The notes under the pieces are model-generated. The model did not search any database. It had not been told where the DNA came from and saw nothing but the letters and a program-made list of their open reading frames with translations. A stretch of DNA of 10,501 nucleotides from a virus, in UHGV virus genome UHGV-1356964, one strand, 5' to 3'. This document shows positions 2,773 to 8,007 of this stretch, piece by piece. Position 1 is the stretch's first letter, and each line of letters starts with the position of its first letter. The position numbers were made by a program, and so were the translations under genes.

Positions 2773-4821
2773 TTATAAATATTTCAAGACAAACATCATG
2801 AGCTCATCATATCTTACACCATATCTGTCACCGAAATCAGTTTCGTCTTTGCACCAGAACCCATACTTTTCAGGATTTAACCCATTATTGCGCATTATGA
2901 CGCCAACCGTTTGCGCCCCGACACCAAAATGATAACGCGCGTTACCACCTTTACTTCTGATGCTCTCTTTCAGCTTGTACCTGTAAATACATTTTCTTAT
3001 TTCATTTGCCGCTTGTTTTTCTTTCAATAAAAGATCATCTGAACATCCGCATGGTTCTTTCATTGATTCATCTGATGTAGTTATTACACCTGTGGTAGAA
3101 TATATTGCTGACCATCTTTTTGTTGTATCGCCTAATGCCGTATCTGAGTCACCTTCAGGAGCTAATCTATTATAGCCACTAATAAGAAGGTCATTTTTTG
3201 GGAGCTCTTTTGATACTCCACCATCAGTTGATGTTAATTTAACGCCTCTTGTTCCAGGTATACTTTTTATTTCAATGCCTGCCTCTGATGTTCCTATTAT
3301 CTGTAGATCGGAATTTTTATTTCTACCATCCTGAAATGGAAGTTCAAAAACATTAGATGTAAATCTCCAATCCGTATCAGAATAAAGCTCGGCTGGTGAC
3401 GAGTTATCGCGCTGTATTATAATGGCACCTTTTCCGCTATCTCGTCTCCGACAACCGGCAATGTTTGCTTGGTTGGGATCCATATTTGAGCTAACCAACA
3501 CACCATCAAACTGAGATATGCTTTCGTAATTATTAGCTCCTTGCCGCTGTGCACTTTCACTTATATAAACCCATGCCCAATCAAAATGGTTCTCATAACT
3601 TCCAACGTTCAGGTCAATCTGATACGGACGAGTGCACAACTCGCCAAAAAACCCACGGAAGTGGATATTACCTGCCACTGATGTATCACTGTTCACCGTC
3701 TTAACAATACGTACTGCGCATGGCACGTCTGCAGGCCAATTGCCCAGAGTGATATTCTCGGAGTGGCCACCAAACACGCGCAAAGAGTCGGTAGACTCAA
3801 TCCAAAAACTACAATTTCCCGTGGCATGATGGGGGTTATATATATGTATGCGCGTATTATTATTATCGCCACTGACGCTGCGTTCAAAATAAAACCCACA
3901 GTCTACACGCTCAAAGTTAGGGTTCATAATTGAGTGGTAGTACGAGCCGCTGTTTTCACCTGATACTGTTGGTCCCGGCTTGAATTTCAGTCCGACTTTT
4001 ACTCCCCTTGCACGTGGATTCTCCATTACACAAAATTGCTGTGACACACGCATGGTTGCCTGAGATTCGTCTTCAGGAGCAATGGCGTAGGCAATAACGT
4101 CAGAGTAGTTATCTGGGTTAATTACTACAGGATTGATTATGTGGCAGAAATCATGGCTCATTCTTAAACATGTAATTCCCGAGTCTCCTGCTACGATTGT
4201 TGTACCAGTAAAATCAATATACCGTGTAGATGTAACATCCTGTGTATACGAGCCATCGAACTTCATTACAAGACTTTGTGTTATGCGATATATCGCACCT
4301 ACTCTCCCTGTTAATTTACCAAAAGGTATTCCTTCGAGCCATGCTAATGCTGATAACATAGATGTGGTGTCGTCAACAATCCCATCACCAATTGCCCCAA
4401 ACTCTTCAAATGTTTTAATGGCTGTCGCCCGATGCGCTATCTGATCAATTGTTGAGCCATATTTTGTTAGACTCTGCCTTAGCTGATCAGGATCATACTT
4501 CAGCACGTTTGGAAAATAGAACTGCTGTGCACCATACGCATCATAAACAGCCATAGAATGACCTTGCACCGTAACAAACTTGGCAATCTGTCCGTTATAT
4601 ACAGGGTAACCAGCAGAATTGATAATGATTGGTTGCGAAACAGGAATGTGAGATCCGTCTTCGTTCTCTACATAAACCTGAATCTGGTTTTCAGGATTTA
4701 CCGGGTCAGTATCAATTTTACCGATATAAATTTTGCCATTGGCTACGGCTTTAAAAGAACGCGCCATAGTGAAGAGTTGCGAAGGCATACTCACTACAAC
4801 ATTGGCTGTAATGTCTGTCAT
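2773..4821 (-). CDS. Tailspike protein (P22/Sf6-type head-binding domain, beta-helix-like receptor-binding domain, C-terminal intramolecular-chaperone-like domain)
   Basis: The N-terminus [61 protein letters not shown]...VLKYDPDQ matches, from memory, the conserved head-binding domain of P22-family tailspikes. The central region is Gly/Asn/Ser/Thr/Asp-rich with many aromatics, typical of a beta-helix glycanase. The C-terminus has TSDESMK, fitting the S-D-x-x-x-K Ser/Lys motif of self-cleaving chaperone domains. GGAG lies 8 nt upstream of the ATG at 4819-4821. Confidence 0.93.
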
Positions 4822-4877
4822 TTAATTTGCTCCAGATACAAGGAATCGCCGCAGCGGGACTACGGTGAATTTTGGGC

Positions 4878-4902
4878 ATAAAAAACCCAGCCGAAGCTGG
4901 GT
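4878..4902 (-). terminator. Intrinsic terminator (- strand) upstream of the tailspike gene
   Basis: The - strand transcript would form a 7-bp stem (ACCCAGC / GCUGGGU) with a 4-nt loop, followed by UUUUUAU (reverse complement of + 4878-4884). On the + strand the stem is followed by CGTTGCG, so it is not a + strand terminator. Confidence 0.55.
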
Positions 4903-4953
4903 CGTTGCGTTGGTTATCTGTCAGTAGTTATGTACTGGCTGAAGGATTTGTAC

Positions 4954-4983
4954 AAAAAACCACCTGACGGTGGGTTAATTTTT
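4954..4983. terminator. Hairpin with flanking A and T runs (bidirectional terminator candidate; stronger on - strand)
   Basis: Stem CCACC (4960-4964), loop TGAC, stem GGTGG (4969-4973). On the + strand it is followed by GTTAATTTTT; on the - strand by UUUUUUG (reverse complement of AAAAAA at 4954-4959). The stem is short (5 bp). Confidence 0.45.
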
Positions 4984-5001
4984 GCATTTACCTGGGCCAT
5001 A

Positions 5002-5030
5002 TTGACTACTCATAAAATGAGATCAATATT
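5002..5030 (+). promoter_or_regulatory. Candidate sigma70 promoter for the small basic-protein gene
   Basis: -35 TTGACT (5002-5007), 17-bp spacer, -10 AATATT (5025-5030), about 37 nt upstream of the ATG at 5067. The spacer contains the inverted repeat CTCAT-AAA-ATGAG (5009-5021), a possible operator. The -10 is weak. Confidence 0.3.
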
Positions 5031-5066
5031 TAATCGCCCAATAACGGGTGCATGTTGAGGTATATC

Positions 5067-5246
5067 ATGGCGAAAAAACCAGGTGAAAACACAGGAAAAA
5101 ACGGCGGAATATACCAAGAAGTTGGCCCACGCGGCGGTAAGAAAGACAATTTTGCCACCGTCAAGGACAACGAAAGGCTTCCACCAACAACAAAGCCAGG
5201 TCATGGCTGGGTATTGGATAAGCGAACTCCAGACAGCAAAAAGTAA
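5067..5246 (+). CDS. Small basic Gly/Lys/Pro-rich protein (59 aa), function unknown
   Basis: ATG at 5067 with GAGG 6 nt upstream; the track's 5052 start is probably an upstream in-frame ATG without a ribosome-binding site. Product: MAKKPGENTGKNGGIYQEVGPRGGKKDNFATVKDNERLPPTTKPGHGWVLDKRTPDSKK. A + strand terminator follows immediately (5253-5275). I could not place the family from memory. Confidence 0.6.
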   Translation: MAKKPGENTGKNGGIYQEVGPRGGKKDNFATVKDNERLPPTTKPGHGWVLDKRTPDSKK

Positions 5247-5252
5247 TAATCA

Positions 5253-5275
5253 AGCCGGTTCACTCCGGCTTTTTG
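5253..5275 (+). terminator. Intrinsic terminator after the small basic-protein gene (overlaps the 3' end of the convergent peptidase gene)
   Basis: Stem AGCCGG (5253-5258), 6-nt loop TTCACT, stem CCGGCT (5265-5270), followed by TTTT (5271-5274), 7 nt after the TAA at 5244-5246. On the - strand the same hairpin is followed by a moderately U-rich tract, so it may also serve the convergent gene. Confidence 0.6.
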
Positions 5276-5625
5276 ATATGTTGCTCGCAGAACTCAACAA
5301 GCCTGCTCATTAAGTAGCAGTAAGTCTCGTTGGCTCTTCCTGGTTCAACATCAACACCTACCCTTGAGCAGATATCGAATGCCATGTGAGCGCACTCATG
5401 GGCAATAGTAGATAGTTTGCCATTGAACACGCCTATCACATGCAAAACACCATTCTCGCTACTCATTGTATGAGACGCTCCGTTGGCGTCCGAGTCATGC
5501 ACGTCAACGCCAAGTTTTTGATGCAGGCGTTGCCATTCTGGAAAGTCTCTACAAAACACAATTGTACCGCTCTCAAAGAGCGGAACGAGCATCTTTGGTA
5601 CGTTTCCAATGTTAACTTTTTTCAT
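5260..5625 (-). CDS. Small HEXXH zinc-metallopeptidase-like protein, ImmA/IrrE (DUF955)-like, 121 aa
   Basis: The motif KLSTIAHECAHMAF (x-T-[LI]-A-H-E-x-x-H) is followed about 15-25 residues later by VEPGRANETYCYLMS, which resembles the E-x-x-A-N-x-[FY]-x-x-x-L-[LM] segment after the HEXXH in ImmA/IrrE-type peptidases. AGGA lies 4 nt upstream of the ATG. There is no adjacent helix-turn-helix partner gene. Confidence 0.75.
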   Translation of the reverse strand: MKKVNIGNVPKMLVPLFESGTIVFCRDFPEWQRLHQKLGVDVHDSDANGASHTMSSENGVLHVIGVFNGKLSTIAHECAHMAFDICSRVGVDVEPGRANETYCYLMSRLVEFCEQHIKKPE

Positions 5626-5659
5626 GGTATCCTGCGAAAAACTAAGGAGAGTTAATTAT

Positions 5660-6145
5660 ATGAAAAAATCACTGTTAATTATCCCGCTTCTGCTGGCTGG
5701 GTGCGCAAAAGTAAGCGACTATCAGGCAAGTTGCGAGCAACGCTATCCAAAGCTTAGCGATATGGCTAATTGCCTTGATGCCAGCTTGAAGAACGACTCT
5801 CGCATGGCATCAGCACCAACACCTAAGCTGTATGTCCTTGCTGCGAAGATGCTCGGGCAAGGTGTCGATGAAGGCAAGATAAGTGACACACAGGCAAGAC
5901 TTGAACTTCAGAATCTTTATGTTCAATTACAAAGCCAAGAACAAGCACAACAAATAGCACAAAGCCAAGCATTCCAGCAGGCTTTATTGAATTATCAGGC
6001 TGTAAACACAATGCAAGCGATCGAGCAAAAAGCGCGCCAGCCTGTTATAACTCAACCTTACCCAACACGCGTTGACACATATACAAACTGCAATTCAGGA
6101 TTTGGAAACACGGTAACATGCAACAGTAGCAGTAATATCAGGTAG
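5660..6145 (+). CDS. Lipoprotein (161 aa; lipobox LAGC, Ala at +2, Gln-rich middle region)
   Basis: ATG at 5660 preceded by AAGGAG (5644-5649). N-terminus MKKSLLIIPLLLAGCAKVS is a classical type II signal peptide with lipobox L-A-G-C. The track's longer ORF from 5609 would overlap the divergent peptidase gene start and lacks a ribosome-binding site. The mature protein is Gln/Ala-rich with a Cys-containing C-terminal tail (TNCNSGFGNTVTCNSSSNIR). Confidence 0.8.
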   Translation: MKKSLLIIPLLLAGCAKVSDYQASCEQRYPKLSDMANCLDASLKNDSRMASAPTPKLYVLAAKMLGQGVDEGKISDTQARLELQNLYVQLQSQEQAQQIAQSQAFQQALLNYQAVNTMQAIEQKARQPVITQPYPTRVDTYTNCNSGFGNTVTCNSSSNIR

Positions 6146-6159
6146 TTATATCTTATCTT

Positions 6160-8007
6160 TTATTGCTGTTCTGCTGTAATTTGGCTTGAAAGTATAGGGC
6201 GTATCGCATTTGCAGCATTATTTAGCGCTCTTTCATAGGCTGGTGTTCCTGCTTTGGTGTTTGCCAGACGTAAGAGAGCATTCCTTGCTGCTTTGGACTC
6301 ATACAAGCGCATCATTGCACCGAAACCAGCCTCAAGCCCCATTGATACGCCAAGAGTCGCAGTTGCGCCAATCGTCCTTATCCTGTTGGCTTGCGATTGC
6401 CCCGTCTGAGTTACTACATTTGCGGTGTCTGACCTTGCTGTTTGCTGTAGAACTTCATGAAGAGCATCAAGCTCTTTCATGTGCTTTCCTGAAAAAATAG
6501 TGTTGTAAATTTCACCGCCTGACTGAGATTTCAGCTTATTAACTTCAGTGATGAACTTGGCTGGAGAGTCACCGGCCTTTTCCGCTATTTTGCTGACGTA
6601 AGCTGCACGCATAGCATCTTTCCCTTTATCATCCAGTGCGCTCCAGATTCGTTTCACGTCAGATGGTTTTCTGCTTAATACAACGGTATTTATAAGTTCA
6701 GGACTGGCTTCACTGCTTGCCTTGTTGAGCTTGTTAGCAATGTTTTTATTAAGCACCTTATTATAAACGTTTGCATAATCGGAATTTGCTTTAAGGTATT
6801 TTGCTGCGTCTGATGCACCGAGGTTTTTTGCAACTGCGTTACGAAGATCTTTTGACATTGCATTCTCTACCATATTGGTAGCTGCTTTTGCCTGGTTGGG
6901 GAAGACCATAGCATCTCCCTGAACATTAGATCTAAATGCTGTTCTGTGCTGACGCAAGAGATCAAACGTAACATCCAAATCAGTTGCAGGGTTTGCTAAT
7001 TCTTCACGTAGGTTACGCAAGGATGTAAGCAGGCTTTGATTGGCAGACGTCCCAAGCCGTTCCTGTCTTGCGATCGCTGTATTCAGAGCATTCATGGTAT
7101 TTGTGGTATCAACTGCGGCATTACCCATTTTATTGGTAACGTCATTGATAACAGCGCCAGCGGCATCCTTCCGTCCCCTTAACGTGGTGGTCAGAGATTT
7201 CACCACATCATCCGGGTTGTACTCACCAAAACGGTCAAAATAATTACTTACCAACTTACTACGCGTTGCATATTGCTCCGCTCGCTTTGAGCCTGTCCCG
7301 AGCAAAGCCCCCTCGGCATCCTGAGTTAGGCCGCGAGTGAAAGCATTTTTCGGCGGGATAACATCAGATGTCATTGGTGTCACGCCCATCGATTCTGATG
7401 TGGCAATTTTCTTCGCCACTTCTGGCGCAATATCACCTTTTATAGCCGTTATTCCACGCCCTATTCCCTTTGCTGCTGCGGAAAGAACACCCTGAGTGGC
7501 AAGGTTAACTCCGGCATTTTTAGCTGCATTTTGTGCGAAATCGCCTTTCTGATTTGTGGCCTCTGCCAGTGAGCCAATAGCCATGCTTCCTGCCGTTCCA
7601 ACTCCTGGAACTAAATACCCACCAATTGTTTCACCGGCTTGCGCGTAAGGGTCTGTCGGTCGATCGACAGGGCGATAAACATCATCCAAAACCTTGGGGC
7701 CACCAAGCCCCTGGCTGATTGCATTAATCAGGCTTGCGCCGCCCTGTAATACGTCGAATGGTATATTTACCAGACCACGACCTGCCTGTTCTGCAATTTG
7801 CCCTGCACTTTGACCACCAGTGAGCCAATCGCCAGCTTGTTGCATCAATGAAGGTTCTTCACGTGCTGGTTCATTATTGGCCTGATTAACTGTTTGTTGC
7901 TGAACAGCCTGACCAGCAAAATACTCATCAATGGCGGTGCCAATATCTTCCGTGCTCGTACCATCAGGAAAGGTAAATGTCTTACCGTTTGCAGTTACTT
8001 TCATCAT
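6160..8007 (-). CDS. Ejection (DNA-injection) protein, P22 gp16-like
   Basis: 615-aa ORF, last gene of a tightly packed - strand operon. Its start overlaps the stop of the upstream gene (ATGATGA at 8001-8007). Size and position match P22 gene 16 (609 aa); composition is Ala/Gly/Asn/Thr-rich as expected for ejection proteins. The assignment is by synteny and size, not sequence identity. Confidence 0.88.

Follow-up and report, generated by a model that had tools for sequence, protein, structure and literature searches.

Two terminator-like hairpins upstream of a P22-type tailspike gene probably mark the scar of a mnt-arc-ant deletion

Introduction

In P22-like phages, the region between gene 16 and the tailspike gene is variable and independently expressed, and it has been termed the 'ant moron' (PMC2629481). 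This region is believed to influence the frequency with which polymerase that initiated at PLate reaches the tailspike gene (PMC2629481), and coliphage HK620 has been described as carrying a degraded ant (Villafane et al. 2008, PMC2629481). In P22 itself, the mnt, arc, sar, and ant genes of the region lie between two hairpins. The P22 ant terminator and the expression of the P22 tail-protein gene have reportedly been the subject of experiments by Berget, Poteete and Sauer 1983 (J Mol Biol 164:561) and by Adams, Brown and Casjens 1985 (J Virol 53:180). The GenBank record of HK620 (AF335538) lists three sites in the corresponding part of its genome: tANT, described as a remnant of P22 ant, tMNT, described as a remnant of P22 mnt, and a bidirectional tORF59A. 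The arrangement that we analyze here is therefore already known: it has been part of the HK620 annotation since 2001, and it was treated as one of the 'ant moron' variants in 2008.

The stretch of DNA that we analyzed, referred to throughout as the window, is the 10,501-nt UHGV virus genome UHGV-1356964. A preliminary description of this DNA had taken two hairpins directly upstream of its tailspike gene to be tandem terminators that insulate the tailspike gene from lysogen-state transcription. In this study, we compared the 164-nt interval that holds the two hairpins with P22, HK620, Stx phages, and related prophages, and we arrive at a reading of the interval in which the pairing of the two hairpins is historical.

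Results

The minus strand of the window belongs to a P22-like (Lederbergvirus) prophage and corresponds to the last part of its late operon. The ejection genes precede the accessory region on this strand, with the gene 16 homologue last among them, and the accessory region comprises three genes in the 1.3 kb between the gene 16 homologue and the tailspike gene (Table 1). Residues 1-113 of the tailspike constitute a P22-type head-binding domain. The predicted lipoprotein gene occupies the position of P22 sieA, is antisense to the late operon, and converges on gene 16; the same gene set as around this gene is found in a prophage of E. coli N-01. The preliminary description had placed both hairpins between the accessory genes and the tailspike ATG on the sense strand of the late operon, and had held that late transcription would have to run antisense through accessory genes to reach the tailspike gene. 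Both statements agree with the layout that we observe: late transcription from gene 16 must traverse two antisense accessory genes, the lipoprotein gene and the orf59a-like gene, both of which are on the plus strand. The label 'peptidase' that had been given to the hkcC-like product did not hold up, since its sole basis is an HExxH motif. Searches of Pfam and NCBIfam with this product returned 0 matches, and its only match is a PHROG family without an assigned function.

Table 1. Positions of the features discussed in the text.
Feature	Position	Strand	Description
Tailspike gene	2773-4821	-	ATG at 4821; 682 aa; Pfam Head_binding at residues 1-113, E = 1e-66
Tailspike ribosome-binding site	4830-4833	-	GGAG
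Leader hairpin	4849-4865	-	CCGUAGU-CCC-GCUGCGG; 27 nt before the ATG; without a U-run
Proximal hairpin (t_ant)	4876-4903	-	Intrinsic terminator predicted from structure and homology; homologue of P22 t_ant and HK620 tANT
ant remnant	4921-4935	-	Last four codons and stop (V H N Y stop), GTACATAACTACTGA
Filler bases at deletion junction	4936-4938		Three bases, CCA on the minus strand
mnt remnant	4939-4967	+	Last seven codons (L K D L Y K K) at 4939-4959
Distal hairpin and U6 run	4954-4973	-	HK620 tMNT; relic of the hairpin spanning the P22 mnt stop codon
orf59a/hkcD homologue	5067-5246	+	59 aa; phrog_3202 (PHROG listing: unknown function); antisense to late operon
Third hairpin	5252-5271	both	Between the convergent orf59a-like and hkcC-like genes
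hkcC homologue	5260-5625	-	121 aa; HExxH motif; sense to late operon
Predicted lipoprotein gene	5660-6145	+	Lipobox LLAGC; phrog_6067 (PHROG listing: unknown function)
Gene 16 homologue	6160-8007	-	DNA ejection protein; last late gene ahead of the accessory region

The hairpin that lies closer to the tailspike gene has the features of an intrinsic terminator, namely a G+C-rich stem, a short loop, and an adjoining U-tract. Its stem is formed by 4884-4891 paired with 4896-4903 (8 pairs, 5 of them G-C) and is closed by a UUCG loop, so that the minus strand RNA reads GACCCAGC-UUCG-GCUGGGUU followed by UUUUAUGCCC. The hairpin has a calculated energy of -13.5 kcal/mol. For the 43-nt segment around it, the fold energy is -15.3 kcal/mol (z = -3.0), and 2 of 200 shuffled sequences fold equally well. 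The U-tract directly after the stem is UUUUUUAU, counting the last two stem bases, and extends down to about 4878. This hairpin, 57 nt upstream of the tailspike start, is the same stem-loop as the annotated P22 ant terminator (t_ant) except for one T fewer in the run after the stem, and we refer to it as t_ant as well.

The distal hairpin is smaller. Its stem pairs 4960-4964 with 4969-4973 (5 pairs, 4 of them G-C), and the minus strand RNA reads CCACC-GUCA-GGUGG followed by UUUUUUGUAC, with UUUUUU directly after the stem. The core has an energy of -7.6 kcal/mol, which is at the weak end for terminators; in context its z-score is -2.96, and 3 of 200 shuffles fold equally well. Both hairpins are thus present where the preliminary description had placed them, and both are terminator-like on the minus strand only: each has a U-tail score of 4.5 on that strand, compared with 1.3 (proximal) and 1.7 (distal) on the plus strand. 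The window as a whole contains 21 terminator-like sites versus 10.1 (sd 3.4) in shuffled sequences, or about twice the expectation, so a single 5-bp match is not convincing on its own. The decisive evidence for both sites is homology, as both are conserved in P22, HK620, and many prophages. A third hairpin, which was absent from the preliminary description, lies between the hkcC-like gene and these two sites. It is strong on the plus strand, where its context folds at -17.9 kcal/mol (z = -6.25) and its U-tail score is 2.95; on the minus strand the U-tail is poor (score 1.1). It corresponds to HK620 tORF59A and to the terminator annotated for mnt in P22.

HK620 is 95.6% identical to the window across 4483-5653 (1.17 kb). 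HK620 tANT and tMNT are exactly the two hairpins described above, annotated on the late sense strand. The two loci share the hairpins, the spacing between them, and the deletion junction described below, as well as the flanks, which consist of hkcC, the region of orf59a/hkcD, and a tailspike whose head-binding domain is of the P22 type. They also show differences. HK620 has lost a G from the 3' arm of t_ant, which reduces the hairpin to -8.2 kcal/mol compared with -13.5 kcal/mol in the window; the orf59a-like gene is intact in the window, whereas it is interrupted by a stop codon in HK620; the window carries the lipoprotein gene in place of HK620 hkcB; and the tailspike bodies are different. 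Among the forms of the 'ant moron', the window is a further one of the HK620 type in which another gene lies beside gene 16, and it falls within the variation already described.

As with HK620, the comparison with P22 is one of homology. The preliminary description had drawn a parallel to the P22 arrangement, and this parallel is correct and stronger than was supposed there, the annotated ant terminator of P22 having its counterpart in the proximal hairpin. Not only the stem-loop and U-tract (one T apart) but also their position relative to the ant stop codon are the same in both, the orf59a and hkcC region is 96.9% identical, and in each case the late genes end with the tailspike gene, which follows an accessory region transcribed mostly in the opposite direction. 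Unlike the window, which retains codon remnants of mnt and ant, P22 keeps mnt, arc, ant, and sar; it also has sieA where the window has the lipoprotein gene, and its t_ant is separated from gene 9 by an additional segment of ~110 nt that includes a further hairpin. The P22 pid locus, a 'moron' locus with transcript data, was considered as a counterpart of the region and rejected; pid transcription starts at nt 40,880 of NC_002371. Stx phages (933W and relatives) contain, in their nin region, the same two hairpins in the same order and orientation, with codon remnants of mnt and ant between them. The Stx-phage scar has a different ant-side junction, retains more of ant, and lies in the early-right operon with no tailspike gene downstream. 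In these phages the t_ant core, CCCAGCTTCGGCTGGG, is kept together with its T-run while the flanks diverge.

The sequence between the two hairpins consists of the ends of two genes. On the minus strand, the ant remnant is identical to the ant 3' end in E. coli P22-like phages (e.g. L006 and L040). On the plus strand, the mnt remnant holds the distal hairpin in its last codons. The C-terminus of P22 Mnt is ...LKDLYKKTT, and the P22 mnt stop codon, TGA, lies inside the loop of the distal hairpin; in the window, the loss of 1 nt in an A-run breaks the frame ahead of the former stop. The junction reads AAATCCTTCAG-CCA-GTACATAACTACTGA, and a three-way comparison shows that its three filler bases adjoin an 8-nt sequence, TCCTTCAG, that is common to both parent sequences. 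The two stems are 56 nt apart here versus 1467 nt in P22, and in relatives that have the full cassette the two hairpins are 1443-1958 nt apart. Neither the operators nor sar are present in the window, and mnt, arc, and ant have lost their bodies. A search of 4600-5700 against Rfam at E <= 1 returned no match above threshold to sar or to any other family; a sub-threshold match to istR in this segment (19 bits versus a gathering score of 45) was taken as chance.

The same junction occurs in other genomes. The exact 29-nt junction is present in 15 IMG/VR contigs, HK620 among them, and a 91-nt junction query is covered by ~20 of 5426 complete E. coli genomes at 97-100% identity. An exact scan for the junction in species-representative genomes gave no match. 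When the whole window was compared with E. coli, the best match extended over only 67% of it. We conclude, with good confidence in the explanation as a whole, that ~1.45 kb with mnt-arc-ant was deleted and that the 164-nt interval is the resulting scar, in which only the two hairpins that had flanked the cassette on the sense strand of the late operon are left. Such a deletion would have brought the two boundary hairpins together, and what had been taken for tandem terminators would then be the boundary hairpins of immI, the secondary-immunity cassette. Judged from these sequences, the tandem arrangement looks like a by-product of the deletion and not like an insulator built for the tailspike gene.

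The two hairpins have fared differently among loci that carry the scar. The t_ant stem is invariant in the 13 distinct scar loci (99% of cells paired), the exception being HK620 with its lost G, and we read this pattern as purifying selection on t_ant. By contrast with this stem, 4 of the 8 distal pairs in the 13 distinct scar sequences depart only through unpaired cells. Uncompensated breaks are seen as CCAACC in L086 and L094, GGTGA in L089, and GGTTG in L090. In E. coli CUVM3, the distal hairpin and its U-run are destroyed and t_ant is perfect; the scar region of CUVM3 and four other E. coli prophages is only 81% identical, and CUVM3 is the one of these that was read. The distal structure does not appear to be maintained by selection in relatives with the same arrangement.

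Intact mnt genes of the E. coli type have an 8-pair distal hairpin of -12.2 kcal/mol. In P22, the distal stem includes a G-U pair on the minus strand RNA (-8.2 kcal/mol), which on the plus strand RNA is an A-C mismatch (-4.8 kcal/mol). The size of the stem follows the mnt allele, with KKPT alleles giving an 8-bp stem and P22-type KKTT alleles a 5-bp stem; the variation in the distal stem is in part an old polymorphism of intact mnt genes. The version in the window has lost one further base from the run, breaking the mnt frame. We read the changes in the distal hairpin as relaxed constraint after the loss of mnt. The picture of a decaying relic is not uniform, since the scar loci L088, L092, L095, and L097 retain a perfect 8-bp distal hairpin. 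A covariation test on the scar loci found no compensatory (double) changes in either terminator stem, so a recent shared ancestry could account for part of the conservation of t_ant.

We surveyed 80 IMG/VR loci in which the N-terminal domain of the tailspike is at least 95% identical to that of the window. The t_ant hairpin is present together with the ant 3' end in 36 of the 80 loci and without the body of ant in 5. It is absent before the tailspike gene in 38 loci: in 15, only mnt is present and the Mnt operator palindrome abuts the tailspike leader, and in 23 a different gene of the Arc family is found. The one locus left has an unrelated upstream architecture. These architectures indicate that t_ant travels with ant or its remnant and not with the tailspike gene. 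Within 600 nt upstream of the ATG, the sense strand carries a single strong terminator-like site in 52 of the 80 loci, no such site in 27, and two in 1. A terminator ahead of the tailspike gene is not a general requirement.

The preliminary description had named a strong independent promoter immediately upstream of the tailspike ATG as a finding that would speak against its model. Our promoter search, which was a consensus scan only, yielded no sigma-70-like site on the minus strand between t_ant and the ATG (4822-4883) at the standard threshold, and a relaxed consensus scan requiring at least 7 of 12 matches gave no candidate in the same segment, in keeping with what that description had expected. 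Upstream of the hkcC-like gene, a perfect TATAAT with a poor -35 element is found on the minus strand at 5660-5655. The sole promoter-like site for the orf59a-like gene is at 5002-5030, which is downstream of the distal hairpin. BTP1, a P22-like prophage, has several secondary promoters on both strands at its tailspike gene and produces a long RNA, STnc6030, that is antisense to the neighbouring DNA-injection gene and to the tailspike 5' end (PMC7067206). These secondary promoters suggest that sole dependence of the tailspike gene on late read-through may not hold across the group.

The tailspike leader contains a further small hairpin (Table 1). Across 33 distinct relatives, 98.7% of its cells are paired, with changes that are wobble-compatible on the sense RNA; compared with shuffled sequences it is not significant (59 of 500; fold z = -1.4). 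We also noted complementarities of 9-11 nt between the hairpin arms and the orf59a coding region, 170-310 nt away, that could suggest alternative anti-terminator pairings. They are at chance level for a 1-kb region and were rejected.

Discussion

The comparisons above suggest how the inherited parts may work. The t_ant hairpin is most likely still an efficient Rho-independent terminator, and it would stop ordinary polymerase approaching the tailspike gene from upstream, for example after initiation at a putative hkcC promoter or at spurious sites in the lysogen. Polymerase from the late promoter, modified by a Q-type antiterminator (gp23 in P22), would read through t_ant, and the tailspike would thereby be expressed as the last gene of the late operon. 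Terminators inside an operon that is read by a termination-resistant polymerase are likewise a feature of lambdoid Q- and N-type antitermination. We draw this link by inference, as the antiterminator gene and its target site lie outside the window; so does the late promoter, the window ending inside the ejection and tail genes. In intact cassettes, the distal hairpin probably kept sense-strand transcription from entering mnt and ant. In the window it would be a weakened relic that causes at most partial termination. The two structures with their homology, the junction, the pattern of conservation, and the lack of a promoter-like site are seen in the sequences, whereas we infer termination, with its efficiency, and antiterminated read-through from P22, and likewise infer this native role of the distal hairpin.

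The proposal that the two hairpins insulate the tailspike gene can be kept in part. Both are terminator-like on the strand that the proposal requires, and insulation by them is mechanically plausible, as a consequence of inherited parts and not of design. What does not carry over is the tandem pair as such, which appears to be a deletion by-product with a decaying distal member, and a purpose-built double insulator is weakly supported. A similar revision applies to the source of the transcription. The hkcC-like gene had been named as this source, and it is indeed co-directional with the tailspike gene, but its transcripts would meet the third hairpin, with its poor minus strand tail, ahead of the distal hairpin and t_ant.

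A broader reading, which we offer tentatively and regard as possible though not probable when all of its parts are taken together, is that the scar is a recurrent footprint. Three types of junction have been seen (the HK620 type, the E. coli CUVM3 type, and the type of Stx phage 933W), and they fall in two different operons. Under this reading, immI would be a mobile moron whose sense-strand terminators at both boundaries survive independent deletions of the interior. The terminator at the mnt stop codon would act at the entry and shield ant from read-through, and t_ant would act at the exit; the exit terminator and the leader hairpin may then have been retained to tune tailspike dosage.

That the pair is instead a selected double barrier in front of the tailspike gene, coupled with silencing of the lipoprotein and orf59a-like genes by putative antisense interference, seems unlikely to us. 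It would account for two terminator-like sites on the correct strand, for two accessory genes that are antisense to the late operon, and for the scar loci in which the full 8-bp distal hairpin is kept; in addition, the hkcC-like gene is co-directional with the tailspike gene and has a TATAAT upstream, and the poor minus strand U-tail of the third hairpin could let some of its transcripts reach the pair. However, a single deletion that the window has in common with HK620 explains the tandem layout, and the distal hairpin is broken without compensation in L086/L094, L089, and L090 and destroyed in CUVM3. Likewise, 27 of the 80 relatives are without a strong sense-strand terminator within 600 nt of the ATG and just 1 of the 80 has two, and the pair is also found in the nin region of Stx phages, where there is no tailspike gene nearby.

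We see a small chance that the distal hairpin acts on the plus strand, either as a terminator or attenuator (of RNA antisense to the tailspike gene or of the former mnt) or as a stabilizer upstream of orf59a. The hairpin is located at the mnt stop codon in intact cassettes, our scan lists it on the plus strand too, with the tail GTTAATTTTT, and the long BTP1 RNA that is antisense to the tailspike 5' end and the DNA-injection gene (PMC7067206) would be a precedent for transcription in this direction. Its plus strand properties argue otherwise: the U-tail score is only 1.7, the fold z-score is -1.2, and in P22 the stem on this strand has the A-C mismatch and an energy of -4.8 kcal/mol. Moreover, the P22 record puts the mnt terminator after orf59a and not at the distal hairpin, and the sole promoter-like site of the orf59a-like gene, at 5002-5030, is downstream of the hairpin.

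We give little credence to the idea that the hairpins are mainly RNA stability or processing elements, protecting 3' ends or yielding a processed tailspike mRNA, and do not stop polymerase. At the P22 pid locus, the terminator loop is needed for transcript stability (PMC8835761), which provides a precedent, and the small conserved hairpin in the tailspike leader would fit such a role as well. Nevertheless, both stems are immediately followed by U-runs, as is characteristic of termination, the records of P22 and HK620 call the proximal site a terminator, and stabilization and termination can coexist. Finally, 5-bp stems with a T-run are common and ~10 terminator-like sites arise per shuffled window, yet the likelihood that both sites are chance hairpins without function is negligible given that they are kept in P22, HK620, Stx phages, and dozens of prophages, that the t_ant core is retained though its flanks diverge, and that both fold z-scores are about -3; for the proximal hairpin, its conservation has already refuted a chance origin.

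Reading the interval as a deletion scar has consequences chiefly for how it is annotated. Its label should be an immI (mnt-arc-ant) deletion scar with a P22-type ant terminator and a relic hairpin, in line with the existing HK620 record. Past correct annotation, the significance is small. For the engineering of P22-like or HK620-like phages or of their tailspikes, t_ant should block expression from upstream promoters unless the late antiterminator is present. The locus also illustrates that what seems to be a design of tandem terminators can have arisen as a by-product of history, and it provides a clean example of a moron whose boundary terminators outlive the genes that they served.

Candidate deletion scars of the immI cassette in other phages

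In the nin region of phage 933W, t_ant, the terminator hairpin proximal to the tailspike gene, and the distal hairpin stand in tandem, with codon remnants of mnt and ant between them. The same tandem pair is found in further Stx phages. In 933W and these phages it lies within the early-right operon, with orf12 on one side and a roi homologue on the other. The ant-side junction of the Stx phages, 933W included, differs from that of the window: ...AAATCCTTCAG AGTAAGTTTACCTCCTTCACTGCATTACTACTGA... This pair appears to be a second scar, left by deletion of the mnt-arc-ant cassette. A third variant is carried by a prophage of E. coli CUVM3, in which t_ant is perfect and the distal hairpin and its U-run have been lost by mutation.

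In the mnt-only relatives, a palindrome resembling the Mnt operator (AGACCACAGTGGTCT) is located immediately 5' of the tailspike leader, and remains of the ant promoter region likewise adjoin the leader. In these relatives, transcription from a Mnt-controlled promoter might reach the tailspike gene.

The tailspike leader

P22 (L002) and the loci L003, L004, L010, L018, L021, L054 and L064 carry an additional segment of approximately 78-110 nt between t_ant and the tailspike leader, which is missing from the window. The segment lies between copies of a direct repeat, which in P22 reads GGCTACGGTGAATTTT, and holds a hairpin followed by A's, both arms of which vary among the variants.

The leader of the window forms a small hairpin of its own. 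Across 33 distinct relatives, 98.7% of its cells are paired, every substitution is compatible with wobble or Watson-Crick pairing on the sense RNA, and one double change (C-G to U-A) is present. Compared with shuffled sequences, this hairpin is not significant (59/500), and its fold z-score is -1.4. Non-homologous leaders (the L020 class and L005) also form a hairpin 25-34 nt 5' of the ATG.

Features of the tailspike region and of its relatives. Coordinates are those of the window unless a locus is named.
Feature	Location	Strand	Description
ORF of 372 aa	1607-2725	-	48 nt 3' of tailspike gene, same strand
Leader hairpin	4849-4865	-	CCGUAGU-CCC-GCUGCGG; 27 nt 5' of tailspike ATG; without U-run
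Promoter-like site	5002-5030	+	TTGACT, 17 nt, AATATT; 5' of orf59a-like gene
hkcC homologue	5260-5625	-	HExxH motif, as HECAH
TATAAT	5660-5655	-	perfect; 5' of hkcC homologue
Lipoprotein gene	5660-6145	+	ends 14 nt from gene 16 (-) stop
Tandem hairpins, 933W	L099 1500-1620		nin region
Third scar variant, CUVM3 prophage	L102 150-240		precise junction CCTTCAG|TACAT
Mnt-operator-like palindrome	L008 2900-3000; L100 460-540		mnt-only relatives
Additional segment, P22	L002 2400-2505		between t_ant and tailspike leader
Variant hairpin of additional segment			arm pairs GACCTACAA/TTGTAGGTC; GCACTACAC/GTGTAGTGC; CACTACG/CGTAGT

Neighboring genes

The ORF downstream of the tailspike gene matched nothing in Pfam, PHROGs or NCBIfam, and the tailspike body past residue 113 has no Pfam match.

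The promoter-like site on the accessory side is found in P22 and HK620 too and, P_mnt being deleted, would be the only candidate promoter of the orf59a-like gene. That gene is intact in the window, whereas the HK620 copy has a stop codon.

The product of the hkcC homologue was called a peptidase in the preliminary description. Apart from the HExxH motif, its sole match is phrog_1365, a PHROG of unknown function, and it matches no Pfam or NCBIfam family; the label is therefore unverified. In a promoter consensus scan, the -35 element that accompanies its TATAAT is poor.

The lipoprotein gene occupies the position held by sieA in P22. A terminator scan of the window found no convincing + strand terminator 3' of this gene. 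Its transcript would enter gene 16, the ejection gene, at the 3' end and in antisense orientation. Such a transcript is reminiscent of STnc6030 of BTP1, an antisense RNA that mediates superinfection exclusion (PMC7067206).
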